Shown: positions 22,296-53,056 of the stretch, piece after piece | Layout: each line of letters opens with the position of its first letter | Position numbering within the stretch: the first letter of the stretch is position 1 | Source: Dehalococcoidia bacterium | GTDB lineage: Bacteria > Chloroflexota > Dehalococcoidia > Lucifugimonadales > UBA3495 | Assembly (NCBI GenBank): GCA_965237595.1 | Contig: CBDEFY010000004.1 | Coordinates: forward strand, 274,213-338,212 | Direction of reading: 5' to 3' | Length of the DNA: 64,000 bases | Notes under the pieces: generated by a model | Databases searched by the model: none | The model's input: the letters and a program-made list of their open reading frames with translations, nothing else | Told to the model about the DNA's origin: nothing | Program-made: the position numbers and the translations under genes

Positions 22296-22464
22296 AGAGG
22301 TGGGGCGGAGATGAGAGGAGAATAGGGGACCTTCGTCGTGAGATCGAATCAGGCAGCAGTAGATGGACTGGTCCTTTGGAAGGGTCGGCTCCCGCATCTA
22401 CTCTGGCCTATTTCGAGGGGAAAACATGTCCAGGCTCTCCTATTCGAGTTGGAGAACTCTTTGG

Positions 22465-24300
22465 CCCATATTTCCCAGTTAGGATAACAGTGTGATGCGG
22501 TATATAGGCAACGTTCTTGCTTTTGTAGTCGTCTCATGAACTTTTCACCAACATCTCGGCTATAATACATTCATTAGAATAGTAAGATTCTTCAGATAGC
22601 GTAACAACCCCGGAGGCACCTGATGGGTGACGGCGACAAAACCCCTCTCCGGCTCCAGTTCAACCCCAAAGTCCGTCTGGAGTTTCACGGTGCCACCATC
22701 ACTTCCGATGCCGGACTCTTGCCCATTCGAGAGCTGGATGATGCCCTGGGCCTTACCCATATTGCTGCCGACTATCTCCAGGAAAGCCGCTCCGGTCGCA
22801 ACATCCGACACCACCTCGTCCCGCTGCTCAGACAGTCCATCTACAGCCGCTTGGCCGGCTACGATGACACCAATGATGCCGAACGCCTTTCCCAAGACCC
22901 AGCCATGAGAGTCGTCGTGGGCTGGCAAGGATCAGACCGGAACGCCGCCAGCACCAACACCGTGAGCCGCTTTGAAACTGAAACTCTGACCCAACAGGAC
23001 AACCTGCAGGGGCTGGCACGAATGAATCCCCAATGGGTGGAAGATGCTATGGCCCATACTCCACACCAGCGAGTGATTCTGGACATGGACAGCTCGGAGA
23101 GTCCAGTGCATGGCCATCAGGAGGGTGCCGCCTACAATGGGCACTTCGAGTGTGTCTGCTATCATCCCCTCTTTCTATTCAACCAGGTCGGCGATTGTGA
23201 AGGAGCGACGCTACGCCCCGGCAACGTCCATAGCGCCGAGGGCTGGCCCACGGGAACTCCTTGAGCCGGTGGTGAAAAGATACCAGAGGAAGGGACGGCG
23301 GCCTGTTGTTCCGGGGTGATCGGACCCGAGGCCTTTGGCAAGCCAGAGGTGTCACGAGTACTTGGACCAAGAGATGATTGGGTACGCCATCCGGCTTTCA
23401 GCTAACGCGGTACTTCAGAGAGAAATCGCGCACCTGCTGGTACGACCTGCCGACTGATCTTCCAGGGAGGCCGATCGTTCTCCGGTACTACGACTTCACT
23501 TACCAGGCCCAGAGCTGGCAGTATTTCCCGGCGAGTAGTCCGCCAAGGTGGAGTGGTATCAGGGGGAGTTATTTCCCAGGGTAGGCTTCATCGTGACCAA
23601 CCTGAGCTATCCACCCAAAGGCATAGTTGCGCTTTTACAATGGCCGTGGCACAGCGGTAGCAGTGGATCAAGGAGGGAAAGCTACGCCCTGAACTGGACC
23701 AGACTGTCCTGTCACAAGTTCGTGGCCAACCAGGCGAGGCTATGGCTGTTCGTTCTGGCGTACAATCTGGGAAACTTCATGAGAAGGATTGGCTTTGCCG
23801 GAGGATATGAAGCATTGGACTCTGACCAGTCTTCAGACTAGGCTGATCAAGACGGGTGGGCGACTGGTACGCCATGCCAGGAGGATGGTGTTTCATGCTT
23901 GCCGAGGTTCTGGTGACCAGCGGAAATGCTCACCGGGATACTAGAACGGATCAGCCGGCTTCGGCTGGCACCTGGCTAGCTTGCTTTGAGAGCACCGGTA
24001 TTTAGGACAGTTGATGGGGTCATCCAGAGTAAGCCGGAGCCAACCATTGAGGTAGATTCCTGTCCGTTGGCGAGGATAGAAGATTTGGAATGTTCTACGG
24101 ATCGTGAGAGACGATGGAATTAAGCAATAAAGAGGTGGGGCGGAGATGAGAGGAGAATAGGGGACCTTCGTCGTGAGATCGAATCAGCGCAGCAGTAGAT
24201 GGACTGGTCCTTTGGAAGGGTCGGCTCGCCGCATCTACTCTGGCACTATTTCGAGGGGAAAACATGTCCAGGCTCTCCTATTCGAGTTGGAGAACTCAGG
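22465..24300 (+). mobile_element. IS1380 copy A, no cargo; 3' half garbled (probable consensus artefact)
   Basis: IRL CCCATATTTCCCAG; TSD TTTGG (22460-22464, 24301-24305); many indels after ~23200. Confidence 0.85.
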
Positions 24301-24601
24301 TTTGGATGTATCTGGAACAAGAGAGACCACCGCAAGGGTTAAGTTGCATGGATCCACTACCACAGCAATTCAACGGAGGAAACGAGAGTCAGTCCGCCCT
24401 CAGGTTGGACGACGGCACCGGACTGCGCGTGGTGAACGCCCGGTTCGTGGGAGAGCGGCAGTTTGACTGGGACCTGTTTACCGGCTGCGGGTGCTCACCT
24501 ACTCCGCCAGCGTCAAGGCTATCGTCAGAATGCTGGACCAATACTCCTTCTGTAATTTTGAGTGTGTGTTCGGGTACGAAGGCACACTGAGGGACATCAA
24601 G

Positions 24602-24806
24602 TGTAGACCGTCAGCGAAAATGGGACAGATCTGGGGGTAAGAAAACCCGAGAGAAGGAAAGTGGCGTGAGCTCCTGTGAAGGTAAGGTACTCACAGAAAG
24701 GAGCAGATGTGTCCCAACCAGATACAGACAAAGCGCTGGCCGCTGAGGAGCGTACGGAGGAAGCCAGATCCTTCGTTCGAACAGTCAGAACGGCCACCAG
24801 GCGTAA
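24602..24806 (+). mobile_element. IS3-like left-end remnant with start of orfA
   Basis: TGTAGACCGTC...GGGACA end; ...SFVRTVRTATRRK. Confidence 0.55.
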
Positions 24807-25264
24807 GTGCAGGGCGCATTGCCCCACTATCGGCAACGAGGGATGCTCCCGGTCCACCATCTCCCGCCGCCGGGCCGGGTTCATGGACCGGACCTCTCGG
24901 CCAAGAAATCCCGCTCCACCTTCAACTAGCCGATCTCCTGGTACAACCGGGCGACCAGGGCGGCGTCGCTCTTGGCCTTCTGATCCTGACCGTTGCCGAA
25001 CACACCGGCGGCTCCCTCGGTCAGGACCTTCTTCCAGGCTTGAATCTGGCTCGGGTGGACCTCGTACTGGACGGCCAGTTGGGCCACCGTCTCCTCCCCC
25101 TTCACCACATCCAGGGCCACCCTCGCCTTGAAGGCCGGGCTGTGTTTCCTTCTTCCTTGCGCCATGTCCTTCTCCTTCCAGACAGCAACAGCTGCCCTTA
25201 GTTTAGGAGCAGGGCTCTCACTTAACTCCACCCCAATTCTGTCCAGTTTCCTGGGTCCACCTCA
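24807..25264 (-). mobile_element. IS3-family left part (orfA with premature TAG, start of orfB)
   Basis: IR TGAGGTGGACCCAGG; RRKHSPAFKARVAL...LYQEIG*LKVERDFL. Confidence 0.85.
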
Positions 25265-25566
25265 CCTACCCTGCGTTAGGGCTGGGTCAGCATCGAGTTA
25301 GCTGGTATTCTCTCCAGAGCCACTAGATGTAGTCACAGTGCGAATGCACTCTAGAAGATACGCAGTGCTGTCGGCCTTGGATGGACACGAAGGCTTGGCG
25401 CCCCGATAACCCGGTAGGGTCCTATAGGGGCGCTCATGAGTGAGCATCCCCATAAGACCACCCGAAGAGGCTCGAACTCCCCGTGAGGGTGGCGATCCCG
25501 GGGATCACAGGCCGCCTAACCACATCTCGAAGACGGTTCTGTCTATCGTGCACGTTGGTCCCGCCC

Positions 25567-25644
25567 CCTACCTACATTTTCACCGAGTCCCGCGTCGGCT
25601 ATCGGATGCCGAAGGGGGAGACGCGGGAGCCGGAGGACTCGTAG
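25567..25644 (+). pseudogene. C-terminal tail of OmpR/KdpE-type response regulator
   Basis: PTYIFTESRVGYRMPKGE. Confidence 0.6.
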
Positions 25645-25918
25645 ACCGGGGCGCTCCCACTCTTAGGTCCGGGCATCGCACTGCTGCCGTATGACTTGGC
25701 GAAGCGGCTGGTCGTAATGAGGGAGATCACCGACCTCCTTTGAGGGGATGGCTGTCTGCGCGGGCTTGGCCTCGGCAGTTGAAGCAACGGCGGGATGGCG
25801 GAACGGCCAGTGGCGGGCCATACGTCGCTGGTAGAATTGGCCATGCAAGTGCCGGGGACCCTGGGGACATTGCTGAACGTGGACCCCATAGCGGTTTACA
25901 GAGGGAGGAGGTAGGACT

Positions 25919-26200
25919 TTGGACGCAGGTAAGCGGATAGAGGACTCTCACCCGGAGCTCTTCCCGACAGATTTCGGGGAGCGGCTGGAGCGGCTCAGGG
26001 AGCTCGTCGGATTATCGTGGGAGCAATTCGCCGAGCGACTCGGCGTCGATGATGGCCGTGTGACGGAGTGGCGCAAGGGCTCGATCCCCTCCGGCGGAGA
26101 GGTGTGGCACATCATGCATCTGGCATCGACGGTTCCCGGGGGGGGGGGGGTCGAGTTGATGCTTACTGAGGCGATCGAGCACGAGCGAACTGCGGAGTAG
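25919..26200 (+). CDS. XRE-family HTH regulator
   Basis: FGERLERLRELVGLSWEQFAERLGVDDGRVTEWRKG. Confidence 0.8.
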   Translation: MDAGKRIEDSHPELFPTDFGERLERLRELVGLSWEQFAERLGVDDGRVTEWRKGSIPSGGEVWHIMHLASTVPGGGGVELMLTEAIEHERTAE

Positions 26201-26272
26201 CCCGCCGCCAGTTCATCCTCGGCCCTTGGTTCTGCGACAGACTGTGAGTGATGACGGTGGAGAGTTCCCGCT

Positions 26273-26515
26273 ATGACCCGTGCCAGACAACGGCGAGGGG
26301 TACGCAAACGCCGAGAGGCTCATGAAGCCAGAGAGCGCAAAGCTAGGCGTGTATGGGCGGCCAGCCTGCCGCCTCCGCCCCTTGAATTGAGCGAAGGACC
26401 GGAGCCCTGCCGGCACACGTGGCAAGACCCCGCGACAGTCAGCCTCTCCAGCGGCAGCCGGGATGTGATAAGGGTCTGCGAGACGTGCCAGGGCTTTGTG
26501 CGAAGGTGTAAGTGA
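26273..26515 (+). CDS. Small basic hypothetical protein with CxH/CxxC
   Basis: 80-aa ORF with RBS; PCRHTW...VCETC. Confidence 0.5.
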   Translation: MTRARQRRGVRKRREAHEARERKARRVWAASLPPPPLELSEGPEPCRHTWQDPATVSLSSGSRDVIRVCETCQGFVRRCK

Positions 26516-26539
26516 TGCCGTCGGTTCCATCTGGTCTAC

Positions 26540-26746
26540 GTGGGACAGGGCGGCCAATACGTGATGCCGTCGTGGGTTTCTGAGTCGTGGCTCAAGGAGC
26601 ACGGGTGCGCTCGCAGGGATTTCGGAGACGTGCCCTTACCGTTCGTGTGGATGCCTGATGCCAATGAACTCCCAATGTTTGACCTTGCCACCTACGGGGA
26701 GATCGACGGGGAGCCCGGGCGCTACGAGCTGGAGTGGTTCAGTTGA
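26540..26746 (+). CDS. Hypothetical protein (start uncertain)
   Basis: ORF continuing the putative operon; protein-like composition. Confidence 0.35.
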   Translation: MGQGGQYVMPSWVSESWLKEHGCARRDFGDVPLPFVWMPDANELPMFDLATYGEIDGEPGRYELEWFS

Positions 26747-26898
26747 CGGGGACGGCTGCCGGGGGACATTGCGATCCACCCGGCCGGGGCGGTTCGGCTC
26801 AGCCCCTTGGAGGACGAAGCCGGAATTTCGATCCGTCCGTCGCGTACCATACGCGTCCCCGCGGCGACCCTCCTCCGCCGGTCCCTGTGGGGCGCACG

Positions 26899-28572: not shown

Positions 28573-28810
28573 CTCTGCCTTCCCTTTGGTGACTCTTCCA
28601 GGCACTACTGCCTCCACCGTTGGCAGGCCCGGAGCCGGAGAAGTCGTCGTTTTCCTGGGCGAAAGTTCATGAAGGGCTAGTGAGGCCCACCTTCTGCGGG
28701 TACCTCTCGGTACCCGGTGGTCCCGTCATCGAAATAGCCTCTCCTTCTCAGTGATCCGCTGCGCCTACAGTAGCCTGTACGTCTCGACAAGTCTGTTCAC
28801 AGGGCTTTTT

Positions 28811-28840
28811 TTGACACTCCAAAGCTGGCATGTGCATACT
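28811..28840 (+). promoter_or_regulatory. Sigma70 promoter of the XRE-membrane gene (near leaderless)
   Basis: TTGACA-18 nt-CATACT, ATG 5 nt downstream. Confidence 0.6.
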
Positions 28841-28870
28841 GATTTATGGGAGACCGTGATGTGCAGCGGG

Positions 28871-30223
28871 GGTCACGTCCCGTCAAGTGGTGTAAGAGTG
28901 CGGCATCCTGTTGATGTAGTTTAGGTGGGTGTCGCCTCCGCGAGATCGGCCTCTGGAAGAGCTTCGTTGAAGGTCAGCACGACAGGTGTGATGTATCGAC
29001 GGCCGACGGCCCATTCGTCGTGCTGCTCAGCCAGGACGGCGCCAACGAGGCGGCGCACGGCCGGCCGGTTAGGGAAGATGCCCACCACATCGGTGCGTCG
29101 CCGGATCTCCTTGTTGAGACGCTCCTGTGGGTTGTTGGACCAGACCTTCTTCCAGTGGGCGAGTGGGAAGTTGGAGAAGGCCAGGAAGTCGGGTCCGGCC
29201 TCGTCCAGTAGAGAGGCGACCTGAGGGAACCGGTCCTGGAGTTGATCGGTCACCCTGTCGAGCTGGGCGTGTACCTCATCGGGGGAGGGTTGCTGGTAGA
29301 TGGTGCGCACCATGGTGACTACCCATGGCTGGGCGCGCCTGGGGACCCGAGTGAGCAGGTTGGTCATGAAGTGGGTGCGGCACCGTTGCCAGCTGGCTCC
29401 GCCGAAGACTGCGGCGATGGCGCCTCGGAGTCCTTGATGAGCGTCCGATACCACCAGCTCCACCCCGCCGAGGCCCCTGGCGGACAGCGAGCGTAGGAAG
29501 GCCAGCCAGAAGGCGCCGTCTTCACTCGTACCCACGTCCATCCCGATGATCTCCCGCTTGCCCTCGCCATTGACCGCCGTTGCCACCACCACGCTGACGT
29601 TGACGATCCTGCCGGCCTCCCTGACCTTCTGGGTCAGTGCGTCCAGCCACAGGTAGGGGTAGGGTCCACCGCCCAGCGGACGGCCCATGAAGCTATCCAC
29701 CACCACGTCCAGTTCCTGACAGATGCGCGACACCTGGCTCTTGGAGATACCCTCACACCCCAGGGCCTTGACCAGATCGTCCACCCGCCTTGTGGATACC
29801 CCTTCCACGTAGGCCTGCTGGATCACAGCCAGCAGAGCTCGCTCGCTGCGACGCCGTGGCTCCAGCAGGCTCGGGAAGTAGCTCCCTTCTCTGAGCTTCG
29901 GGATGTGCAGATCCATCGTCCCTACACGGGTATCCCACGCCCGGGACCGATACCCGTTGTGCTGGGTCACCCGCTCAGGGCTGCGTTCTCCATACTCAGC
30001 ACCGATCCTCGATGACACCTCCGCATCCATGATCCCCTCTACCAGCACTCTCAGTGCCTCCCGTAGGAAGTCCACGTCGCGCAATAGCTCCAGCAGGTCC
30101 ATCCTTTCCTTGACCACTGTTGTCCTCCTTTCTCGAGCTTTCTTCTTTGCCCGCTAAGGATGACGCGGTGGTCTCTCTTTCTCCAGACCCTCTCCCTCTT
30201 ACACCACTTCCTGGGACTCTACT
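28871..30223 (-). mobile_element. IS256-family element
   Basis: IR core GTCCC..AAGTGGTGTAAGAG at both ends; TSD GCAGCGGG (28863-28870, 30224-30231). Confidence 0.92.
28921..30117 (-). CDS. IS256 (Mutator) transposase
   Basis: YLWLDA, VVSDAH, WQRCRTHF, SNNPQERLNKEIRRR. Confidence 0.95.
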   Translation of the reverse strand: MVKERMDLLELLRDVDFLREALRVLVEGIMDAEVSSRIGAEYGERSPERVTQHNGYRSRAWDTRVGTMDLHIPKLREGSYFPSLLEPRRRSERALLAVIQQAYVEGVSTRRVDDLVKALGCEGISKSQVSRICQELDVVVDSFMGRPLGGGPYPYLWLDALTQKVREAGRIVNVSVVVATAVNGEGKREIIGMDVGTSEDGAFWLAFLRSLSARGLGGVELVVSDAHQGLRGAIAAVFGGASWQRCRTHFMTNLLTRVPRRAQPWVVTMVRTIYQQPSPDEVHAQLDRVTDQLQDRFPQVASLLDEAGPDFLAFSNFPLAHWKKVWSNNPQERLNKEIRRRTDVVGIFPNRPAVRRLVGAVLAEQHDEWAVGRRYITPVVLTFNEALPEADLAEATPT

Positions 30224-30463
30224 GCAGCGGGCCAGAGCGGCCCAGGTGGGCCTATTGATGAGGTCCTACCGCGAGTCCTTTTCCCCGGGAGGCGGTCGGC
30301 GGAGGCTGACGCAGGAAGCCCTGTTGGAGCGGATGGGGTCGGTGGACAGTGACTACGCGGAGCGGTACAGCCACGCGACCGTCTCGCGATGGGAATCCGG
30401 CGGCACCCGCCCCACTCTCCAGCGGCTCAAGGTATTTGGCAGAGCCCTCGACCTGTCGCGGAC

Positions 30464-31796
30464 TGAGGTGGACCCAATCAGTTGGACAGGTTTGGTGCAA
30501 AACTAAGTGAGAGTTCCGCCGTCTTTCCAAGGTCTGAGAACGCTCCGTTCGGTGCCCGTTTCCCATTGATTGACCGTTCATCTGATGGCGCCAAGTCTCC
30601 TTTGAACACCTCAGCCGGTGTCCGGTAGCCCAAGGCCTGGTGGGGTCTTTGGTTGTTGTAGAAGCTGAAGTATGCGTCAAGCCCGGCCTTGGCTTCTCGC
30701 CCGTTGGAGTAGGCTTTCAGGTAGACCTCCTCGTACTTAACCGTGCGCCACAGCCGCTCCAACAAGATGTTGTCGGTGTAGCGTCCCTTCCCGTCCATGC
30801 TGATTCTCACTCCGTGCTGCTCTAGGAGACCGGTAAAGGCTTCGCCGGTGAACTGGCTGCCCTGGTCGGTGTTGAAGACCTCTGGCTTCCCCTTGCCAAG
30901 CGCTTCCTCCAATGTCTCGACACAGAAATCAGCATCCAAGGTGTTGGAAAGACGCCAGGCCACCACGTACCGCGTGTACCAATCCATGATGGCCACCAGG
31001 TATAAGAAACCCTTGGCCATGGGGATGTAGGTGATGTCGGCGGCCCACACCTGATTTGGTCTGGTGATCTCCATGCCGCTCAGGAGGTAGGGATACACCT
31101 TGTGCCCTGGCCCCGGCTTGCTGGTCCGGGGCCACCGGTAGATGGCACGTAGTCCCATGGTCCGCATCAGACGCTGGACCCGCTTCCGGTTCACCCTGTG
31201 GACCTTGAGTGCCCAGCCAGACCCTCATGCGCCGCGACCCGTAGAAGGGGGTACTTAGGTACTGGTGGTCCATCGCCTTCATCACGGTCAGGTTCTCCAA
31301 GCAAGTCCCCTTGCGCCGGTAGTTTAGGCTGGACCTGCTGATGCTCAGTAAGGCGCACTGTCTCACTGTGGACAAGGCTGGGTGCCGCCGGTCCACCATC
31401 GTCCCGCCGCCGCTCCCGGCTCATGGACCGAGCCTCTCCGCCAAGAAATCCCGCTCAACCTTCAGTTGGCCGATCTGCTGATAGAGCCGGGCAACAAGGA
31501 CCGCATCGCTCTTCTGGCGTTTGTCTTGGTTCCCACCAAAGACGCCGACCGCTCCTTCCAACAAGGACTTCTTCCAGGCCTGGATCTGCCCGGGATGGAC
31601 CTCGTAGGGGGCGGCCAGTTGGGCCACCGTCCTCTTCACCCTTCACCGCTTCCAGGGCCACCTTGGCCTTGAATGTTGGGCTGTGCTTCCTCCGCTCTTT
31701 TGACATGTCCCACTCCTCCCTCACAGCAACAGCTGTGGCTATTTTAGGAGCAGAACTCTCACTTAACCACCCGTCCGAATTTCCGGGTCCACCTCA
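30464..31796 (-). mobile_element. IS3-family element (orfA ~31421-31706, orfB ~30478-31424, frameshifted)
   Basis: IRs TGAGGTGGACCC at both ends; WAADITY, FNTDQGSQF, ERLWRTVKYE. Confidence 0.92.
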
Positions 31797-32329
31797 GCCA
31801 TCATGGATTGGTACACGCGGTACGTGGTGGCCTGGCGTCTTTCCAACACCTTGGATGCTGATTTCTGTGTCGAGACATTGGAGGAAGCGCTTGGCAAGGG
31901 GAAGCCAGAGGTCTTCAACACCGACCAGGGCAGCCAGTTCACCGGCGAAGCCTTTACCGGTCTCCTAGAGCAGCACGGAGTGAGAATCAGCATGGACGGG
32001 AAGGGACGCTACACCGACAACATCTTGTTGGAGCGGCTGTGGCGCACGGTTAAGTACGAGGAGGTCTACCTGAAAGCCTACTCCAACGGGCGAGAAGCCA
32101 AGGCCGGGCTTGACGCATACTTCAGCTTCTACAACAACCAAAGACCCCCACCAGGCCTTGGGCTACCGGACACCGGCTGAGGTGTTCAAAGGAGACTTGG
32201 CGCCATCAGATGAACGGTCAATCAATGGGAAAACGGGCACCGAACGGAGCGTTCTCAGACCTTGGAAAGACGGCGGAACTCCCACTTAGTTTTTGCACCA
32301 AACCTGTCCAACTGATTGGGTCCACCTCA
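31797..32329 (+). mobile_element. Inverted partial duplicate (3' half plus IRR) of the adjacent IS3
   Basis: Near-identical to reverse complement of 30464-30993; 3-bp TSD GAC flanks the composite 30464-32329. Confidence 0.85.
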
Positions 32330-32508
32330 GACAGAGGTAGCCGGTCTCATCCCATATTTCCCAGTTAGGATAACAGTGTGATGCGGTATATAGGCAACGT
32401 TCTTGCTTTTGTAGTCGTCTCATGAACTTTTCACCAACATCTCGGCTATAATACATTCATTAGAATAGTAAGATTCTTCAGATAGCGTAACAACCCCGGA
32501 GGCACCTG

Positions 32509-33840
32509 ATGGGTGACGGCGACAAAACCCCTCTCCGGCTCCAGTTCAACCCCAAAGTCCGTCTGGAGTTTCACGGTGCCACCATCACTTCCGATGCCGG
32601 ACTCTTGCCCATTCGAGAGCTGGATGATGCCCTGGGCCTTACCCATATTGCTGCCGACTATCTCCAGGAAAGCCGCTCCGGTCGCAACATCCGACACCAC
32701 CTCGTCCCGCTGCTCAGACAGTCCATCTACAGCCGCTTGGCCGGCTACGATGACACCAATGATGCCGAACGCCTTTCCCAAGACCCAGCCATGAGAGTCG
32801 TCGTGGGCTGGCAAGGATCAGACCGGAACGCCGCCAGCACCAACACCGTGAGCCGCTTTGAAACTGAAACTCTGACCCAACAGGACAACCTGCAGGGGCT
32901 GGCACGAATGAATCCCCAATGGGTGGAAGATGCTATGGCCCATACTCCACACCAGCGAGTGATTCTGGACATGGACAGCTCGGAGAGTCCAGTGCATGGC
33001 CATCAGGAGGGTGCCGCCTACAATGGGCACTTCGAGTGTGTCTGCTATCATCCCCTCTTTCTATTCAACCAGTTCGGCGATTGTGAAGGAGCGACGCTAC
33101 GCCCCGGCAACGTCCATAGCGCCGAGGGCTGGCAGGAACTCCTTGAGCCGGTGGTGAAAAGATACCAGAGGAAGGGACGGCGGCTGTTGTTCCGGGGTGA
33201 TGCCGCCTTTGGCAAGCCAGAGGTGTACGAGTACTTGGAACAAGAGATGATTGGGTACGCCATCCGGCTTTCAGCTAACGCGGTACTTCAGAGAGAAATC
33301 GCGCACCTGCTGGTACGACCTGCCGACTGGTCTTCCAGGAGGCCGATCGTCTCCTACTACGACTTCACTTACCAGGCCCAGAGCTGGAGTATTTCCCGGC
33401 GAGTAGTAGCCAAGGTGGAGTGGCATCAGGGGGAGTTATTTCCCAGGGTAGGCTTCATCGTGACCAACCTGAGCTATCCACCCAAAGGCATAGTCCGCTT
33501 TTACAATGGCCGTGGCACAGCGGAGCAGTGGATCAAGGAGGGCAAGTACGCCCTGAACTGGACCAGACTGTCCTGTCACAAGTTCGTGGCCAACCAGGCG
33601 AGGCTATGGCTGTTCGTTCTGGCGTACAATCTGGGAAACTTCATGAGAAGGTTGGCTTTGCCGGAGGATATGAAGCATTGGACTCTGACCAGTCTTCAGA
33701 CTAGGCTGATCAAGACGGGTGGGCGACTGGTACGCCATGCCAGGAGGATGGTGTTTCAGCTTGCCGAGGTGCTGGTGACCAGGGAAATGCTCACCGGGAT
33801 ACTAGAACGGATCAGCCGGCTTCGGCTGGCACCTGGCTAG
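32509..33840 (+). CDS. IS1380-family transposase
   Basis: ITSDAGLL, ILDMDS, FRGDAAF, YNGRGTAEQWIKEGK. Confidence 0.95.
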   Translation: MGDGDKTPLRLQFNPKVRLEFHGATITSDAGLLPIRELDDALGLTHIAADYLQESRSGRNIRHHLVPLLRQSIYSRLAGYDDTNDAERLSQDPAMRVVVGWQGSDRNAASTNTVSRFETETLTQQDNLQGLARMNPQWVEDAMAHTPHQRVILDMDSSESPVHGHQEGAAYNGHFECVCYHPLFLFNQFGDCEGATLRPGNVHSAEGWQELLEPVVKRYQRKGRRLLFRGDAAFGKPEVYEYLEQEMIGYAIRLSANAVLQREIAHLLVRPADWSSRRPIVSYYDFTYQAQSWSISRRVVAKVEWHQGELFPRVGFIVTNLSYPPKGIVRFYNGRGTAEQWIKEGKYALNWTRLSCHKFVANQARLWLFVLAYNLGNFMRRLALPEDMKHWTLTSLQTRLIKTGGRLVRHARRMVFQLAEVLVTREMLTGILERISRLRLAPG

Positions 33841-34093
33841 CTTGCTTTGAGAGCACCGGTATTTAGGACAGTTATGGGGTCGTCAAGAGTAAATGGGCCG
33901 CCACGAGGGAGACGCTTGGGCAAGGGCAGAGGATTTGGAATTTCTACGCTCGTTAGGACGATGGATATCCTATGAGAGTGGAGCAATTGAGTGAATCGGA
34001 GCGCAGTTGACGCGCTCAGGATACCGTACTATAGTTCCCGCCGCACAGGATGACACCGGTTCAGGGAAATCAGGTTGATCTGGGAAATTCAGG

Positions 34094-34352
34094 CTAAGAG
34101 GGGTTCCAGGAACGAGTATGCGACAGTCATTTCACGACTGGAGATGATGCCGCCAGGTTTCAAGATCCTCTTCACCTCGGCCAGTACAGCCTGTGTATCC
34201 AGAACGTGCATGAGAACGGCATGGCAGTGGGCTGCATCGAAGGAGTCATCTTCGAAGGGAAGGTCAGTCACACCGCCGACGTGGAATGTCGGGTTCTCGT
34301 GTCCACCTGCCCCGGCGACAGATCGGGCCAGACTAATCTGCCACTCTTCCAT
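34094..34352 (-). pseudogene. Class I SAM methyltransferase fragment (cargo)
   Basis: LPFEDDSFDAAHCHAVLMHV...VKRILKPGG. Confidence 0.8.
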
Positions 34353-34432
34353 GAGCGGTCCTTGTACTGAACGCAACCCCACCCACCTCGGCGCAACATC
34401 CAGGTATCCCTAGAAGCGTAGCCCCCTGGGGT

Positions 34433-34776
34433 CTAGCTGGAGTCCTGATTCAGCTTCGTGAACAAGTCCCGCCACCACCCCTTGCCCTGGGTACCGAAGC
34501 CGGACCGTACTCGGACGACTCCGTTTCTATCTATGGCGATTTTCGTTGACTGGCTTGTTACTCGGTAGGAACGGATGGTATCCGAGGCGGTCACGGCCAT
34601 TGGGAAGGTATACCCTTGCGAATCTCTATATGATCTGATCTTCTCCAACCCCTCGTTGGGGTCGGTGCCCACAGCCACAACTGCCACGTCACCGAACTGG
34701 CTTGTCAACTCATGCAGCGTCCGTAACTCGGCGCGGCAGTGGGGTCACCAGGTGGCAAAGAAATAGAGGATAAAGG
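34433..34776 (-). pseudogene. Thioredoxin-fold (TlpA/peroxiredoxin-like) C-terminal fragment (cargo)
   Basis: LYFFATW*PHCRAE motif with TGA at the first Cys position; STKIAIDRNG. Confidence 0.7.
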
Positions 34777-35990
34777 CTCATATTGCTGGCAGGGCTGGCG
34801 ACTGACTTTCGAGCGGCCTTGGGTCACGTCACCGGGAGCGATGGTGACAGGGCCATTGGCAATGGCGCAACGCCTGACCCGAGATCTGCCCCCTACGTTG
34901 CGGCCGACGCCGAAGCTTCGAAAACCGAAAGCACCCCGTCAATCCTCAGGGCCGCAGCGCGTTTTGGGTTTCTAAGGGTCCTGCCGCTCGGGATGTGCAT
35001 AGTTTGGTGGGTATGTGCTGTCGTTCTACGGCTGGAACAACGCCTGGATGCCCACGGCGTACGTCGCTTTCGCAATTGGGATCGTATTAGTGCAGGGATT
35101 CTTGCTGCCGGACCGTGGAGCTCCCTTCAGGGAGTTCTTCTGGGTTTCGCTGTTCTTCCTGTTGACCACGCCCCTGCTGCAGTTCGCCTCGACACGCGTG
35201 GACCACTACAACTTCCACACGATTGGGAACCTTGCTGGCACCCAGATACCCTACATGCTGGCGCTTCTCCTGAACCTGGTGGTCGCATCTGCAGCCGGGC
35301 TGATGTTCCAGCTGCTATGGAAACGGCAGTACGCGGGCGACAGCGACAGGAGCAGCGCCCTCCAGCGGGCGGCCTGGGTGGCACTGCCGCCGGTCATCTC
35401 CGTGTACGCTGTTGTCGTTGTCGTCACCAACAGTTCGGTATCGATACAGCTGGCGGTCCTGTTGCCAGTGCTGGCTGCTGTCTTCACCGCATTGCTGGTC
35501 TTGCGCGACCCCGCCTTCAACCCCAGCGAGCGCGACAGGCTGTTCCTGCTCTCGACGACGTCGGCCTTGGCCATGATCTCGGGAGCCTTGGGGATAGTTA
35601 CCATGCTGGCGATATACCTGTCGCCGGACCTGCCGCGCGTTCTGCCGGACCACAACCTGCTGCGCTCCTGGGAAATCAATTTCGCAGAGTTGGGCCTTAG
35701 CCGAGAAGAGGCGCTGGACGGGTTGAACTTGGGATACATGTGGCACGCGATCTGGGTCTTCGCCTTCATGTTCTTTGTTGTCGGCGGCAGACTGATTGTG
35801 TCCATCTACCGGATTGATGGCGGCCGACGACGATGAGGACCCTGGGACAGAGGAGGAGAAGAAGCCCCACCAACGTAGCCCCGGGGGGCTCTACGGCTTC
35901 GTAGACTGCTTCCTGGCCGTCCGAGTCCAGAATGCCTTCACGCCCTAGCTCTACGAGCAGCTTCCCGTGGAAGTGCTCCTCATTGAGCGC

Positions 35991-40249: not shown

Positions 40250-40495
40250 GATTACATATACATTCTCCGTAGCGAGCGTAACGGCCGTTTTTACATAGGG
40301 AGTACCGGCGATCTACAAAATCGGGTAGAGCAGCACAACGCTGGGATGAGCAAGTCGACGAGAACCTTTCGTCCCTGGCAGTTGATTTATCAAGAAGAGT
40401 ACGAATCTCTTTCTGCAGCTCGACAAAGGGAATCTCAGCTAAAATCTTGGAAGAGCCACACATATCTCGAGTCCCAGTTAAACCTCAATGTATAG
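40250..40495 (+). pseudogene. Small GIY-YIG nuclease (UPF0213/YhbQ-like) copy 1, start codon lost
   Basis: YIYILRSERNGRFYIGSTGDLQNRVEQHN...RPWQLIYQEEY...ARQRESQLKSWK; not in the ORF track. Confidence 0.88.
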
Positions 40496-40573
40496 CTCAT
40501 CTGGGAGAGCGTCCCGATCGCCATCGGGAAGGTACGGGGTTCCCCCGGTAAATCGGGGCCCGCAGCTCCACCA
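40493..40573 (+). repeat. tRNA-Ala-like sequence lacking 5' acceptor strand, with inserted hairpins (copy 1)
   Basis: TAGCTCATCTGGGAGAGCG D-arm, GGTACGGGGTTC T-arm start, CCCGCAGCTCCACCA 3' end. Confidence 0.8.
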
Positions 40574-40583
40574 CTGTCCTGTC

Positions 40584-40830
40584 ATGTATTACATATACAT
40601 TCTCCGCAGCGAGCGTAACGGCCGTTATTAGTTCGGATGCACCGGTCACGTGAAAACTCGCGTGGAGCAACACAACGCCGGTATGACCAAGTCGACGAGA
40701 ACCTTTCGTCCCTGGCAGTTGATTCATCAAAGAGTATGAGTCCCCGTCCGTCGCAAGAAAAAGGGAATCCCAGATAAAATCTTGGAAGAACCGCTCCTAT
40801 GTCGAGTCCCAATTGAACCTCAGTGCATAG
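40584..40830 (+). pseudogene. Small GIY-YIG nuclease copy 2 (internal TAG plus frameshift)
   Basis: MYYIYILRSERNGRY*FGCTG...RPWQLIHQ/EYESPSVARKRESQIKSWK. Confidence 0.85.
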
Positions 40831-40908
40831 CTCATGTGGGATAGCGTCCCGATTGTCATCGGGAAGGTACGGGGTTCCCCCGATAAATCGGGGCCCGCAG
40901 CTCCACCA
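40828..40908 (+). repeat. tRNA-Ala-like sequence with inserted hairpins (copy 2)
   Basis: Same layout as 40493-40573 with a few substitutions. Confidence 0.8.
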
Positions 40909-40982
40909 CATCCAGCCCGATAAAGCACTTCGTCTTCCCTTCCCGCGCTTTCTAGTAGTTTCTGGCAATAGCCCCTTCACTC

Positions 40983-46473: not shown

Positions 46474-46503
46474 CTTTCGTTCTCCAATATCATTTTCTGA
46501 ATC

Positions 46504-47262
46504 TTATACAACGCTGCTGGAGCTCCTACGCAAATCGACCCGGGGCTCGGCCAGAAGACGGCCGTATCCGTACACCGGTTCGGTCTCTCCGGCCTGACTC
46601 AGGACACTCCAAAGGGTGGCCGAATGTGAGGTGACCACCGGCTTTCCAATCTCGTCTTCCAAAGCTTGGGCGGCGGCCATACCGTCGTAGTTCATACAGC
46701 TGATGAACAGGCCGTCGGCTTCATCGGCGTAGTCCCTCCAGGCGTTCAGGAAAAACTCGTAAATCTCATCGGGCGGCACAGACGCAAAACCCTCGGCGGT
46801 CTCCAGACCCATCCCCTGCATCGTTAGGGCCTCGATACCGGCTTCCTTCAGATAGGCGCGCTCGGCGTCATGATGGCTGTCGGGATAGGGGGTCGACACC
46901 ACGATCCTCTTCAAGCCAAGGTGCTGCAATGCCTCGGTAACTGCCAGCATGGTCGACGTGATGGGCGTGCCCCACTGGGCCCGGCAGAACTGGCGGTCTT
47001 TCTCCATCCCGCGCAGCGCGCCGCTAACGGTGCAGCAGTAGGCCACCGAATCGACTTTGGCGCTGGCCAGTTCGCCCACCGCGCGGACGGCATGGCCCTC
47101 CATCTCAATCAGGGCGTCGATGCTCTCACCCTCGGCCAGCATCATGCGGCTGGTGAAGAAACCCACCCCCGGAGGCGCAACCTTGGGGTACCTCAACTCG
47201 GAGATTGTCGATGCGCTGACCACCACCAGTCCAATCTTGGTCCGCAGGTCCAGCTTGTCCAT
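46504..47262 (-). CDS. Maleate cis-trans isomerase / Asp-Glu racemase family
   Basis: YCCT, VSTPY, FISCMN, GKPVVTS. Confidence 0.9.
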   Translation of the reverse strand: MDKLDLRTKIGLVVVSASTISELRYPKVAPPGVGFFTSRMMLAEGESIDALIEMEGHAVRAVGELASAKVDSVAYCCTVSGALRGMEKDRQFCRAQWGTPITSTMLAVTEALQHLGLKRIVVSTPYPDSHHDAERAYLKEAGIEALTMQGMGLETAEGFASVPPDEIYEFFLNAWRDYADEADGLFISCMNYDGMAAAQALEDEIGKPVVTSHSATLWSVLSQAGETEPVYGYGRLLAEPRVDLRRSSSSVV

Positions 47263-47485
47263 CTGCCCTTCTCCCAGCCTAGGATTGATTGGAAGATTGC
47301 CGTCACGATAACCCTTGTGTTTCGGTTGCCAATTCTATCACAGCGCCAGGCTGGAAATGGCAGCCCTTGATATCGGGGCAAGCGGGAAACAAACTATGAG
47401 GTCCGTCGGCCAATGGCCGAGGCGCTGAGTTGCTATAATGTGGCCCATCTCTACCGTGGGTGGCGTTAGCCCCTGATGAGGACCC

Positions 47486-48622
47486 GTGGCGAGCTTCCCG
47501 TTGGACGCAGGACAAGCCTATCAACATTTGGGCGTTAGACCCATCATCAATGCCGCCGGTTCCGTCACCAAATACGGCGGCACCAGGACCCGGCCCGAGG
47601 TCCTGGAGGTGATGGCCGGGGCCGCCCGAATCATGGTCAATGTGGAAGATTTAAACCGGAAGGCCGGCGAAGAGGTCGCCCGGCTGACCGGGGCGGAGGC
47701 AGGGTTCGTTTGCAGCGGCGCGGCGGGCGGCTTGGTGCTTCAGGCTGCGGCCTGCATCGCTGGCAAAGACCCGGTCAAGATGCGGCGACTGCCCGACACC
47801 ACGGGCATGCCGGACGAGATAATCATCCAGAACATGCACCGTTTTCCGTACGAGCAGGCCTACCGGGCCGCCGGCGGCAAGTTGGTGGAGATTGGCGATT
47901 CCAGATACACCCATCCTTGGGAATTGGAAGGGGCCATCGGAGAAAACACGGCGGCGGTGGCTTTCCTCTGCGCTCCCTTGACCAATCGGCGGGCCCTATC
48001 CCTTCCCCAGGTATGCGAGATCGCCCACAATCGCGGCGTGCCAGTAATCGTTGACGCCGCCTCGATGCTCCCGCCCAGGGAGAACTTGAGGCGATATCTG
48101 GCCGATGGCGCCGACATGGTTGCCTTCAGCGGTGGAAAGGGCGTGCGCGGACCCCAGGGCACGGGCCTCCTCTGCGGGCGGGCCGACCTGATTGAAGCGG
48201 CCGCTGCCCACGCCAACCCGGCCCAGTTCTTGGGACGGCCCATGAAGGTGGCCAAGGAGGAAGTGGTGGGACTGGTGACCGCCCTGAACCTGTTCGTCGA
48301 GGAGGACGAAGAAGCCGAGATGCGGGCCTACCGGACCCTGGCCCAACGGGTGGTGGACGCCCTTAGCGAGGTCCCCGGCCTAAAAATCACCCTGGAACAT
48401 GACGAGCACGACTACCTAATCCCCCACGCCCTCATGCGCTTCGGCCGGGACTGGCGCGGGCCCAGCAGAGATGAGATTGCCAAGGCCTTGGAAGAGGGCG
48501 AGCCCGCCATCTACCTGCACCAGTTGGGCCAGCCCGACGAATTGGCGGTGGACCCGTTGAACCTGACCGAAGATGAGACCGAAACCGTGGTGCGGCGTCT
48601 GCGGGAAGAACTGACCCGCTAG
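47486..48622 (+). CDS. SelA-like PLP-dependent enzyme (DgaE-related)
   Basis: PIINAAG, VIVDAA, FSGGKGVRGPQ, RPMKVAKEE. Confidence 0.9.
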   Translation: MASFPLDAGQAYQHLGVRPIINAAGSVTKYGGTRTRPEVLEVMAGAARIMVNVEDLNRKAGEEVARLTGAEAGFVCSGAAGGLVLQAAACIAGKDPVKMRRLPDTTGMPDEIIIQNMHRFPYEQAYRAAGGKLVEIGDSRYTHPWELEGAIGENTAAVAFLCAPLTNRRALSLPQVCEIAHNRGVPVIVDAASMLPPRENLRRYLADGADMVAFSGGKGVRGPQGTGLLCGRADLIEAAAAHANPAQFLGRPMKVAKEEVVGLVTALNLFVEEDEEAEMRAYRTLAQRVVDALSEVPGLKITLEHDEHDYLIPHALMRFGRDWRGPSRDEIAKALEEGEPAIYLHQLGQPDELAVDPLNLTEDETETVVRRLREELTR

Positions 48623-48691
48623 CACCAAGCGCCCCCATCTCCGACTTCGCCGGACCTGACCTTCCCCCTTGCGAGGAGGAAGGGACAAATT

Positions 48692-48990
48692 CATGAGTCA
48701 TCCCGGAGTTTGCCAGGGATGACAAATCCAGGCACATTGACAGTACGCGGGCGGCGATTTGCCATTGAATAACGGCAGCGCCGCCTTCGTCTTTCCGGCG
48801 AAAGCCGGAATACAGTTACCCCGTGCCAAGCCGCCTTTGTGCCGCCGTACGCATTGCATCTGATTAGGGCCAGAGCGCCGTTTTCCCTGTCCTCGAGGCG
48901 GTAACTACAAGGTAGCCGCTCTGGGTTCCGGCCTGCGCCGGCGTTGGCGCCCAGGTGTGTTTGTTCGAGTAAACTCCGGGATGACTCATG
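48692..48990. mobile_element. MITE-like 299-bp element containing a REP-like pair
   Basis: Perfect 20-bp IRs CATGAGTCATCCCGGAGTTT; internal TTCCGGCGAAAGCCGGAA and TTCCGGCCTGCGCCGG; no ORF. Confidence 0.7.
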
Positions 48991-49071
48991 TTAGAGTGAG
49001 GGTGAAATCGTCGTCCGAAATCGGCTACGTTAGGCTAAGGAGAAGGAAATGGCCATCAAGATCGACTTAAG

Positions 49072-49477
49072 AGCAAATAATCTGGGCCAAGGCCCGTGGG
49101 GTGCTGACTCATAGCCATTATCTGTGGGCCCACGAGCCATGTTTCTACGGCTGGGTTGAAGGCCACCAACCCTCTAAGAAGCCCCCGGCTAGCGAGAGGA
49201 CCATCTGGCAGCTGGACCAGCAGGGTTCCAGCATGAACATCCATCCTACCCAGAAACCGTTGGAACTCTTCTTGCGGCCGATCGAGTACCACACCGAGGT
49301 TGGAGACCTCTGCTATGAGCCCTTCTTGGGCAGCGGCACTCAGCTGATCGCGGCGGAAAAGCTTGGTCGGGTCTGCTATGCGTTGGAACGGGAGCCTCAG
49401 TACGTTGATGTGGCGGTCAAGCGGTGGGAGTCATTCACCGGAGAGCAGGCCGTGAAGGAGAACCAATGGCAACAAAC
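49072..49477 (+). pseudogene. Phage-type DNA methyltransferase C-terminal fragment (extra cargo)
   Basis: QIIWAK...HEPCFYGW...HPTQKPLEL...YEPFLGSGTQLIAAE. Confidence 0.85.
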
Positions 49478-50413
49478 CCTTTATCCTCTATTTCTTTGCC
49501 ACCTGGTGACCCCACTGCCGCGCCGAGTTACGGACGCTGCATGAGTTGACAAGCCAGTTCGGTGACGTGGCAGTTGTGGCTGTGGGCACCGACCCCAACG
49601 AGGGGTTGGAGAAGATCAGATCATATAGAGATTCGCAAGGGTATACCTTCCCAATGGCCGTGACCGCCTCGGATACCATCCGTTCCTACCGAGTAACAAG
49701 CCAGTCAACGAAAATCGCCATAGATAGAAACGGAGTCGTCCGAGTACGGTCCGGCTTCGGTACCCAGGGCAAGGGGTGGTGGCGGGACTTGTTCACGAAG
49801 CTGAATCAGGACTCCAGCTAGACCCCAGGGGGCTACGCTTCTAGGGATACCTGGATGTTGCGCCGAGGTGGGTGGGGTTGCGTTCAGTACAAGGACCGCT
49901 CATGGAAGAGTGGCAGATTAGTCTGGCCCGATCTGTCGCCGGGGCAGGTGGACACGAGAACCCGACATTCCACGTCGGCGGTGTGACTGACCTTCCCTTC
50001 GAAGATGACTCCTTCGATGCAGCCCACTGCCATGCCGTTCTCATGCACGTTCTGGATACACAGGCTGTACTGGCCGAGGTGAAGAGGATCTTGAAACCTG
50101 GCGGCATCATCTCCAGTCGTGAAATGACTGTCGCATACTCGTTCCTGGAACCCCTCTTAGCCTGAATTTCCCAGATCAACCTGATTTCCCTGAACCGGTG
50201 TCATCCTGTGCGGCGGGAACTATAGTACGGTATCCTGAGCGCGTCAACTGCGCTCCGATTCACTCAATTGCTCCACTCTCATAGGATATCCATCGTCCTA
50301 ACGAGCGTAGAAATTCCAAATCCTCTGCCCTTGCCCAAGCGTCTCCCTCGTGGCGGCCCATTTACTCTTGACGACCCCATAACTGTCCTAAATACCGGTG
50401 CTCTCAAAGCAAG

Positions 50414-51745
50414 CTAGCCAGGTGCCAGCCGAAGCCGGCTGATCCGTTCTAGTATCCCGGTGAGCATTTCCCTGGTCACCAGCACCTCGGCAAGCTGAAA
50501 CACCATCCTCCTGGCATGGCGTACCAGTCGCCCACCCGTCTTGATCAGCCTAGTCTGAAGACTGGTCAGAGTCCAATGCTTCATATCCTCCGGCAAAGCC
50601 AACCTTCTCATGAAGTTTCCCAGATTGTACGCCAGAACGAACAGCCATAGCCTCGCCTGGTTGGCCACGAACTTGTGACAGGACAGTCTGGTCCAGTTCA
50701 GGGCGTACTTGCCCTCCTTGATCCACTGCTCCGCTGTGCCACGGCCATTGTAAAAGCGGACTATGCCTTTGGGTGGATAGCTCAGGTTGGTCACGATGAA
50801 GCCTACCCTGGGAAATAACTCCCCCTGATGCCACTCCACCTTGGCTACTACTCGCCGGGAAATACTCCAGCTCTGGGCCTGGTAAGTGAAGTCGTAGTAG
50901 GAGACGATCGGCCTCCTGGAAGACCAGTCGGCAGGTCGTACCAGCAGGTGCGCGATTTCTCTCTGAAGTACCGCGTTAGCTGAAAGCCGGATGGCGTACC
51001 CAATCATCTCTTGTTCCAAGTACTCGTACACCTCTGGCTTGCCAAAGGCGGCATCACCCCGGAACAACAGCCGCCGTCCCTTCCTCTGGTATCTTTTCAC
51101 CACCGGCTCAAGGAGTTCCTGCCAGCCCTCGGCGCTATGGACGTTGCCGGGGCGTAGCGTCGCTCCTTCACAATCGCCGAACTGGTTGAATAGAAAGAGG
51201 GGATGATAGCAGACACACTCGAAGTGCCCATTGTAGGCGGCACCCTCCTGATGGCCATGCACTGGACTCTCCGAGCTGTCCATGTCCAGAATCACTCGCT
51301 GGTGTGGAGTATGGGCCATAGCATCTTCCACCCATTGGGGATTCATTCGTGCCAGCCCCTGCAGGTTGTCCTGTTGGGTCAGAGTTTCAGTTTCAAAGCG
51401 GCTCACGGTGTTGGTGCTGGCGGCGTTCCGGTCTGATCCTTGCCAGCCCACGACGACTCTCATGGCTGGGTCTTGGGAAAGGCGTTCGGCATCATTGGTG
51501 TCATCGTAGCCGGCCAAGCGGCTGTAGATGGACTGTCTGAGCAGCGGGACGAGGTGGTGTCGGATGTTGCGACCGGAGCGGCTTTCCTGGAGATAGTCGG
51601 CAGCAATATGGGTAAGGCCCAGGGCATCATCCAGCTCTCGAATGGGCAAGAGTCCGGCATCGGAAGTGATGGTGGCACCGTGAAACTCCAGACGGACTTT
51701 GGGGTTGAACTGGAGCCGGAGAGGGGTTTTGTCGCCGTCACCCAT
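50414..51745 (-). CDS. IS1380-family transposase
   Basis: Same 443-aa protein as 32509-33840. Confidence 0.95.
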   Translation of the reverse strand: MGDGDKTPLRLQFNPKVRLEFHGATITSDAGLLPIRELDDALGLTHIAADYLQESRSGRNIRHHLVPLLRQSIYSRLAGYDDTNDAERLSQDPAMRVVVGWQGSDRNAASTNTVSRFETETLTQQDNLQGLARMNPQWVEDAMAHTPHQRVILDMDSSESPVHGHQEGAAYNGHFECVCYHPLFLFNQFGDCEGATLRPGNVHSAEGWQELLEPVVKRYQRKGRRLLFRGDAAFGKPEVYEYLEQEMIGYAIRLSANAVLQREIAHLLVRPADWSSRRPIVSYYDFTYQAQSWSISRRVVAKVEWHQGELFPRVGFIVTNLSYPPKGIVRFYNGRGTAEQWIKEGKYALNWTRLSCHKFVANQARLWLFVLAYNLGNFMRRLALPEDMKHWTLTSLQTRLIKTGGRLVRHARRMVFQLAEVLVTREMLTGILERISRLRLAPG

Positions 51746-53056
51746 CAGGTGCCTCCGGGGTTGTTACGCTATCTGAAGAATCTTACTATTCTAATGAATG
51801 TATTATAGCCGAGATGTTGGTGAAAAGTTCATGAGACGACTACAAAAGCAAGAACGTTGCCTATATACCGCATCACACTGTTATCCTAACTGGGAAATAT
51901 GGGTTAAGAGTTCCCCCCTGCAAACCCGTTCCGGAGATCACAGCCTTTGTGAGAGAGTGCGAGGACGCTGGCTTCGACGGCGTGGGCATGTTGGACTCCC
52001 AGATGCTGGAGCGGGACGTATTCGTCTCCATGGCCCATGCTTTGCTTAACACCTCCACCATCCGGGTGGCCTCGGCAGTAACCAACCCGGTGACCCGGCA
52101 TCCGTCGGTGCTGGCCTCGGCGGCCCAGACCGTCTCCGAGATTGCGCCGGGCCGGGCCCAGATCTGGATCGGGCGGGGTTATAGCTCCGCCAACGTCATT
52201 GGCATTCCTCCGGCCACCGTGCGCCAGATGCGGGACTCGGTCATCATGATGAAAGAACTCATGGCTGGGAGCCAGGTCGATTTCGGTAGCGCTTCGAGCC
52301 GCATGCGCCACGGAGGCGGCGTCACGACCCCGGTCTACATCGCGGCCACCGGCCCCAGGGTCATGAAGGTGGCCGGTGAGGTGGCCGACGGCGCAGTCTT
52401 GATGACCGGCATCCACCCGAATGCCGTGGCGGAAGCACGGGAGTTGATTGCCGACGGGGCCAAGTCCGCCGGGCGGGACCCCAACGACATAGAGGCCATC
52501 TTCACGTGCACGACCATCATCCGAAACAACCTGAAGGAAGCAAGGGAGGTCGCCCGGCCCCTGGCGGTCCAGAGACTGATGGAGTCCACCTATGTGCGGT
52601 GGCTGAAGGCCGCCGGCCTGGACTTCAGTGACTTGGAACTGCCCCGGGGACTCTGGGACCTCTACCCCGACGTCCCCCACGCGGAGGACTGGGAGAAGGC
52701 CAAGGAGCTGTGCGCATTCCTGCCCGACGACGCGCTGGCCCAGCTCTGCGACACCATGGGCCTGATTGGCTCGCCGGAGTATTGCGCCGAACGCATCCAG
52801 CAGGCGGAGAAGGCGGGATTGGAGCACCTCTACCTGATGACCGACCAGACCTACGAGTTCGCTACCGGCGAATTGAAGGCCTTCAAAGACAAGATATTTC
52901 CGGCGCTATGCCGGACCGAGCAGCCGGCGTAGGGTCAAACGGGGTTTCGTGGCCTAAGCAAGGGGTACCTGTTGATTCGGCAGGGCCGACCCTCTGAAAA
53001 AGCAGATTTACTCAGAGTCGGCAGCGGCGGCAAAGTTAGCATGAGAGCATTACTCG

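Follow-up and report, generated by a model that had tools for sequence, protein, structure and literature searches.

Apparent stepwise capture of adjacent DNA by an IS1380-family insertion sequence in a Dehalococcoidia genome

How does a single insertion sequence (IS) come to carry, within one genome, several different lengths of extra DNA beyond its right end? This question is raised by a 64,000-nucleotide stretch of a Dehalococcoidia bacterium (the window; C4:274213-338212 of the 3.56-Mb assembly G000, which has 7 contigs). A repeat scan of the window revealed a 2.43-kb inverted repeat (32345-34776 versus 49478-51909), with partial matches from 22465 onwards and at 15595-16048. The repeat contains a 1743-bp IS1380-family element with 683 bp of further DNA beyond its right inverted repeat (IRR). 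The second, inverted occurrence consists of the same 2426 bp plus 406 bp, giving a 2832-bp unit (49072-51903). A first-pass annotation of the window had proposed that the element accumulates gene fragments over successive jumps. Our findings favor read-through capture, in which the IS repeatedly overshoots IRR and two successive captures can be traced; we give this reading a probability of ~0.88. Coordinates of the features are collected in Table 1.

The 1743-bp IS has a single transposase open reading frame (ORF) and terminal inverted repeats; the left repeat (IRL) and IRR match at 12/20 positions (AnCTGGGAAATnnnGG). The predicted transposase matched PF13701 (E 8.6e-137, residues 11-439) and NF033539 (406.7 bits, cutoff 180; residues 19-420). 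Judged by this full-length match to a DDE transposase profile, the element is an IS1380-family insertion sequence. Elements of this family are ~1.7 kb long, have one transposase ORF and terminal inverted repeats, and generate short target duplications of 4-5 bp. The best plasmid-borne relatives of the transposase showed 59% and 51% identity. Of 41 genomes searched, G000 alone contained the exact IS; ISs of relatives were ≤87% identical (87% in genome G021 and 84% in genome G032). Neither a 40-mer covering the exact IRR-cargo junction nor a 24-mer of IRL had any match in metagenome contigs. None of the papers listed in a literature search on IS1380 in Chloroflexi, sponges, SAR202 or Dehalococcoidia contained IS1380.

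BLAST and motif scans of the whole assembly detected 23 exact left ends and 20 exact right ends. The left end was constant. The right ends differed, and every unit type was bounded by its own 5-bp duplication: such duplications enclosed units extending 683 bp (three copies), 693 bp (one), 912 bp (one) and 1089 bp (two) beyond IRR. A perfect duplication was present around the whole unit in 17 of 21 complete units, where the chance of one perfect 5-bp duplication is 1/1024. A right end other than IRR was used in 8 of the 17 insertions with verified duplication. Since the units each have their own duplication, the proposal of ISEcp1-like mobilization of adjacent DNA through alternative right ends was borne out. 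One unit (C1:245567-246977) extends from IRL to a point within the transposase gene (…GGTGTTTCAGCT) with CTTAT on both sides, and looks like a non-autonomous derivative generated through use of an internal end. We considered whether this 1411-bp unit and the insertion at C7:1074485 represent one event. Both have CTTAT followed by "acc", but their flanks are otherwise unrelated, and the two insertions are therefore independent. Seventeen of 22 copies were identical over all 1743 bp, and 18/22 had an identical 443-aa ORF. Together with empty-site contigs found in 2/4 public runs (see below), these counts support the claim of an active element, one that would be transposing now or have done so very recently.

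The cargo was traced to two donor loci. Donor 1 (C1:565039) has the same 693 bp directly after the IS, and the sequence runs on from there through a whole AhpC/TSA-redoxin gene. This segment (C1:566782-568032) was 96.7% identical over 1252 bp to locus L013 of G032, a genome from the same order as G000 and a different family. L013 has no IS, and its methyltransferase gene extends beyond the insertion site (…CTCTTAG|GGAGC…). At donor 1, the redoxin gene contains both the 683- and the 693-bp end (…GGATAAAGG|GTTTGTTGCC|taggaag…), and the redoxin reading "GNKPFILYFFATW" spans the 683-bp end. At donor 2 (C7:788388), an IS+693 unit is flanked on both sides by ATTGG. It sits at the 3′ end of a ParB-N6/N4 methylase gene, which belongs to a module with primase-like genes. 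The C7 flanks matched C6:666602-667939 (99.25% over 1338 bp) and C6:667934-669162 (99.92% over 1229 bp). This paralogous site on C6 is exactly empty (C6:667935-667939; ...gggctatcATTGGttctcc...): the 2436-bp unit is absent and the sequence is uninterrupted (…gggctatcATTGGttctccttcacgg…). The C6 paralogue also has a 2.5-kb insert (C6:664068-666601; L002 3068-5601) that is not in the C7 copy and includes a 488-aa N6_N4 DNA methylase fused to an HNH nuclease domain.

In the 912- and 1089-bp units, the IS is followed by the 693 bp, then ATTGG, then 214 or 391 bp of C7 flank. Because they contain the ATTGG scar and the C7 flank, they were evidently formed at C7 after the arrival of IS+693. The proposed stepwise accumulation of gene fragments thus gained a located counterpart for each step: both donor loci, the empty paralogue and the scar. 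As read from this sequence content, there were two successive captures, the small-to-large order is settled for the second step, and the capture intermediate is IS+693, not IS+683.

The reverse order, which the first-pass annotation had left as an alternative, would place the longest unit first and derive the shorter ones through its inner ends (+912, +693, +683, IRR) in later jumps. Every longer unit holds all of the inner ends, so any copy can yield shorter units; all cargo copies are 100% identical, and the four IS+683 copies are indistinguishable by origin. However, the 693 bp continue natively at C1:565039, and the 391 bp past the ATTGG scar belong natively to a module of which C6 holds an IS-free copy. 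On C7, moreover, the module sequence continues for 1229 bp beyond IS+693, which again places the making of the 912- and 1089-bp units there. We regard the reverse order as possible but unlikely. It does not hold for the second step. For the IS+683 form, the source may be the donor or any of the longer units, and the large-to-small order may apply to it.

A further account, which we consider very improbable, derives all cargo lengths from a single donor site as different read-throughs, with no intermediate jump. The 683- and 693-bp ends do lie in one contiguous gene at C1:565039, with the redoxin reading crossing the shorter end. Past +693, however, the sequence switches locus; ATTGG stands at the switch and occurs again next to IRL of the C7 copy, and the C6 paralogue has no cargo at that site. 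Native adjacency of the redoxin and ParB-methylase genes was not seen in G032 or G000.

The two cargo-bearing units in the window interrupt host genes. Removal of the 2832-bp unit and one TTAAG gives "…ATGGCCATCAAGATCGAC TTAAG AGTTCCCCCCTGC…" and restores the start of a luciferase-like monooxygenase/oxidoreductase (LLM) gene, MAIKIDLRVPPCKP…; the restored product reads "MAIKIDL|RVPPCKP…" and matched PF00296 (E 7.8e-46). The LLM gene was present in 17/19 other genomes of the genus. In all seven same-genus LLM loci examined, the insertion site was empty, with the flanks abutting and a single target copy. The closest LLM orthologues, with up to 93% amino acid identity, were in metagenome-assembled genomes labelled Chloroflexota, Dehalococcoidia or SAR202 cluster. 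Just upstream of the LLM gene (~48690-48995) lies a ~310-bp element with terminal inverted repeats (…GAGTCATCCCGGAGTTT … AAACTCCGGGATGACTC…), which was not at that position in the same-genus LLM loci examined. Several copies of 76-82% identity occur elsewhere in G000, and the element looks like a miniature inverted-repeat transposable element.

Excision of the 2426-bp unit (32351-34776; 1743 bp of IS and 683 bp of cargo) restores the reading "…SRTEVAGLILLAGLATDF…" of a gene with an XRE helix-turn-helix part and a membrane part. In a protein search of the order, the membrane part was present in 26 of 150 other genomes, in frames of 436-464 aa. Six homologous loci were examined (L057 was left out, as its match contains TGA), and all six were uninterrupted across the insertion point ("…SR(T/V)E(V/M/L)AGL(I/V)LLAGLA…"). 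The flank of this unit was found at the DNA level in 0/19 same-genus genomes, and no paralogues of the XRE and membrane parts were found in G000. The earlier claims for both units, namely their extents, their duplications (CTCAT and TTAAG) and the restoration of two host frames on removal, all held.

The XRE-membrane gene is broken two further times, by IS3-family debris (~30471-32328) and by a frameshift near 35000. Beyond its N-terminal part it continues at 32329-32350 and 34777-35004 and, after the frameshift, at 34991-35836; the homologous protein of genome G083 matches three separate segments of the window (30225-30470, 34777-35004 and 34991-35818). The debris (30471-32328) comprises two partial IS3-family copies with rve domains in inverted orientation. 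It contains a 352-bp perfect inverted repeat (30642-30993 versus 31797-32148), and both of its outer ends are the same IS end. At the frameshift (~34991-35015), CIVGGYVLSFYGWNN is read in one frame in the homologues and requires two frames in the window. Either a genuine mutation or an indel error in the assembly could account for this.

The third copy in the window, at 22465, had been described as a bare 1743-bp IS flanked by TTTGG. The duplication stood, with its right-hand TTTGG moved from next to 24207 to its true position (24301-24305); the clean full-length copy did not. Over its first 783 bp, this copy agrees letter for letter with the others. There follow 39 gap positions, mostly 1-4-nt insertions, and the transposase frame meets its first stop at residue 213. 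IS homology fades near IS position ~1540, and the last ~200 bp are replaced by a segment (24052-24297) that duplicates the 232-bp left flank and ends in …CAGG TTTGG. No IRR was found at this copy. Comparison with contigs from public runs, which covered this one stretch, revealed a joint of 22459 to 24301, with the five letters TTTGG fitting either side, in 2/4 runs (X15, 1366 bp with no differing letters; X19, 374 bp). The joint was absent from runs X16 and X1, and the occupied junction was bridged by no contig among those listed. Most of the depth in the public runs fell on the IS, a multi-copy sequence with relatives in other organisms. Because the joint shares TTTGG, the insertion at 22465 is real, its duplication is TTTGG, and the site is empty in other populations. 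In the garbled 3′ part, the assembly probably merged occupied and empty molecules into one consensus, unless the stretch was left unpolished. A second noisy IS copy lies at C7:419271.

These two bad assembly stretches, and the IS flanks shared by contigs C1, C2 and C5, are what an explanation by chimeric assembler joins or IS-IS recombination with fortuitous duplications could draw on, but we consider it the least probable of all, because eight cargo-bearing or odd-ended units in eight contexts all have a perfect 5-bp repeat, which a chimeric join does not produce, and because the host genes are restored exactly, as confirmed against other genomes.

In read-through capture, the reading that we prefer, the transposase would always use the same IRL and would often pass IRR and cut further downstream. 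The IS and its right-hand neighbor would then move as one unit, with a 5-bp target duplication around the whole. An IS located beside the methyltransferase fragment and the redoxin gene at C1:565039 would have given units with 683 and 693 bp. IS+693 would then have landed at the 3′ end of the ParB-DNA-methylase gene at C7:788388, duplicating ATTGG, and read-through from there to two further ends would have yielded the 912- and 1089-bp units. By analogy with known systems, we infer that the transposase itself mis-recognizes its ends. Both donors are still occupied, and a copy-like transposition process therefore fits, without proof. The +693, +1089 and 1411 ends finish in GC plus a pyrimidine, and in 4/4 of these insertions the base preceding the duplication matches as well, allowing a 6-bp reading; the boundary at these ends is thus uncertain by one base (5- or 6-bp repeat). 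Most of the 6-bp readings could reflect a preference for T before the target. A second mode of end cleavage, hinted at by the 6-bp readings at the GC-pyrimidine ends, is possible but unlikely.

Several points weigh against this reading. Four of the 21 complete units (C1:620616, C2:60436, C5:102536 and C7:897292) have no duplication. Flanks are shared or exchanged among them: TTCAG, for example, stands to the right of the C7:897292 unit and to the left of C1:620616 and C2:60436. This pattern suggests either IS-IS recombination or repeats that were left unresolved at contig ends. To the left of the donor 1 IS, the methyltransferase gene does not continue; the flank (…TTAAG) matches the expected CTAAG at 4/5 positions. 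This locus is therefore either rearranged or itself a still longer unit. The flank was absent from 19/19 same-genus genomes searched, and no TTAAG was found after the point where G032 homology stops, as a longer unit would have it. Identity among copies could be partly inflated by consensus polishing of a repeat-rich long-read assembly. The IS copies examined in G021 and G032 showed no read-through habit; the three G021 copies lie within larger 6-7.7-kb repeats near contig ends, which precludes a conclusion on their habit. More generally, the evidence is comparative, plus one polymorphic site in public runs.

End choice is a further point of this kind. The 683-bp end had been described as weakly IRR-like, and this is supported: it matches IRR at 9/17 positions, a score reached by 35/1483 donor positions. 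The +912 end matches at 8/17 positions, and the +693 and +1089 ends at 6/17, the latter score being no better than that of ~30% of positions. Given this weak likeness and the many unused positions that score as well, the scores do not single out the ends that were used.

C1:617000-627000, C2:56000-63000 and C5:102500-104300 hold three IS copies with shared left or right flanks and no duplications, which again suggests IS-IS recombination, or else that the assembly took alternative paths through repeats; C1:617000-627000 also contains an older IS1380 relative of 73% identity.

The cargo proved to be the mosaic of methyltransferase, thioredoxin-fold and DNA-methyltransferase fragments that had been predicted. 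An S-adenosylmethionine (SAM)-methyltransferase fragment (34089-34382; PF08241, E 2.1e-15) is followed by an N-terminally cut AhpC/TSA-redoxin gene with a thioredoxin fold, which reaches to 34776 and was identified via its full-length copy. The long unit adds the last ~130 codons of the DNA methylase gene (PF01555, N6_N4; E 9.8e-15). All cargo fragments read towards the IS, and an outward IS promoter can therefore play no part in their expression.

The captured redoxin gene (34433-34776, minus strand; 49468-49821, plus strand) has an in-frame TGA at the first Cys of CxxC (FFATW-TGA-PHC). The TGA is kept in the full-length G000 copy (C1:566782-568032; L070 9122-9934, minus strand) and in the 97%-identical G032 gene (L013 5324-6118). 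At such similarity, the two genes do not provide independent evidence. A tRNA-Sec (anticodon tca) is encoded in G000 at C6:152953-153049. The fold of the 75 nt after the TGA, used as a test for a selenocysteine insertion sequence (SECIS), gave z -0.8 versus shuffles, which is not distinctive. As judged from these sequences, the captured gene may encode a selenocysteine redoxin. Segments of 96-98% nucleotide identity are shared by G000 and G032 at C5:123445-125145, C7:1006379-1007323 and C1:566782-568032 (versus L013), whereas the IS1380 copies of the two genomes are only 84% identical. The genomes belong to different families, and this pattern suggests recent exchange of mobile DNA between the two lineages.

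Other repeats were noted in the window. The isolated IS piece at 15595-16048 sits amid other repeat families of the genome, namely a 716-bp repeat and a many-copy ~335-bp repeat. Two tandem ~336-bp units of 85% identity lie at 40251-40909.

Table 1. Features of the window and IS unit types in the G000 assembly. Positions without a contig prefix are those of the window.
Feature	Position or copies	Strand	Remarks
Isolated internal IS fragment, 454 bp	15595..16048	-	IS positions 117-570; 100% identical
Left TTTGG duplication	22460..22464		
IS1380-family copy without right end	22465..24040	+	96% identity; many 1-4-nt insertions
Noisy second copy of left flank 22227-22459	24052..24297		In place of IS right end; 231/246 identical, 14 gaps
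Right TTTGG duplication	24301..24305		
XRE-membrane gene, XRE helix-turn-helix N-terminal part	30120..30470	+	PF13560, E 2.6e-7
Left CTCAT duplication, IS+683 unit	32346..32350		
IS1380-family IS, 1743 bp	32351..34093	+	Starts CCCATATTTCCCAG (IRL), ends CTGGGAAATTCAGG (IRR)
Transposase gene, 443 aa, IS1380 family	32509..33840	+	PF13701, NF033539
683-bp cargo from donor 1	34094..34776	-	SAM-methyltransferase fragment and AhpC/TSA-redoxin gene
Right CTCAT duplication, IS+683 unit	34777..34781		
LLM gene, first 7 codons (MAIKIDL)	49049..49071	+	Continues at 51909-52932
TTAAG duplication, cargo end of IS+1089 unit	49067..49071		
Donor 2 segment, 391 bp	49072..49462	+	3′ end of ParB-N6/N4 DNA methylase gene; repeated mobile-element module
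CCAAT (ATTGG in IS orientation)	49463..49467		Scar of earlier IS+693 duplication at C7:788388
10 further bases of donor 1 (redoxin gene)	49468..49477		Complete the IS+693 intermediate
683-bp cargo, inverted	49478..50160	+	Same as 34094-34776
IS copy	50161..51903	-	Identical over all 1743 bp; transposase gene 50414-51745
TTAAG duplication, IRL end of IS+1089 unit	51904..51908		
Bare IS	12 copies		9 with perfect 5-bp duplication
IS+683 bp	4 copies		3 with perfect duplication: CTCAT (window), TTTAG, TCAAT
IS+693 bp	1 copy, C7:788388		Perfect duplication ATTGG
IS+912 bp	1 copy		Perfect duplication TCAAG
IS+1089 bp	2 copies		Both perfect; in IS orientation CTTAA (window; TTAAG on plus strand) and CTGAG (C6:610757)
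Unit ending at IS position 1411, inside transposase gene	1 copy		Perfect duplication CTTAT
Donor copy, cargo running on into native DNA	C1:565039		Duplication not counted
313-bp IS fragment	1 copy		Duplication not counted

That IS1380-family elements capture DNA by read-through is known chiefly from cases exposed by antibiotic selection, such as ISEcp1 with blaCTX-M. In the present uncultured marine Chloroflexota, the cargo is useless, and the spectrum of right ends should therefore be close to unselected. The 8 of 17 verified insertions give a rough view of the rate at which the right end is missed; they involve no new mechanism. That overshoot is normal behavior in this IS1380 branch and not a rare slip is a doubtful generalization, put forward because of this high proportion of non-IRR ends, the end inside the transposase gene, and the lack of a selectable cargo that would enrich such events. 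If it were true, IS-rich symbiont genomes would be steadily supplied by elements of this type with scattered gene fragments and chimeric frames. ISEcp1 transposition units are flanked by a 5-bp target duplication.

The part of PMC10100714 on ISEcp1 describes units in which one IS copy with a constant IRL uses alternative right ends beyond IRR to give variable unit sizes, and which carry DNA adjoining the previous site, so that their history can be read from their content. The present units resemble those of ISEcp1 (ISEc9) in Enterobacterales in their constant IRL, variable right ends, and duplication around the whole unit, and their cargo is likewise the DNA beside IRR at an earlier site (C1:565039 for donor 1, C7:788388 for donor 2). 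Unlike ISEcp1, the present IS is hosted by an uncultured Chloroflexota and its transposase is only 23.6% identical to that of ISEcp1 (over 91% of length). Its cargo consists of gene fragments only, with no selectable gene and no expression from an outward promoter, and one of its units ends inside the transposase gene. The ISPme1 and IS1247a transposable modules (TMos) of Paracoccus are environmental rather than clinical; as section 7.3 of PMC9330008 describes them, a single IS mobilizes adjacent 3′ DNA of variable length through end mis-recognition, which is the pattern found here. For ISPme1, the evidence is experimental, from trap plasmids, and the element has a strong outward promoter, whereas the present IS is known from sequence comparison alone. 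The mechanism is thus an already known one, read-through of the ISEcp1/ISPme1 type, as is the use of flanks for tracing history, and the present IS is a distant member of the family. What is particular here is that both donors, the empty paralogue and the internal duplication scar are found in one genome, where they form a clean natural record of two successive captures.

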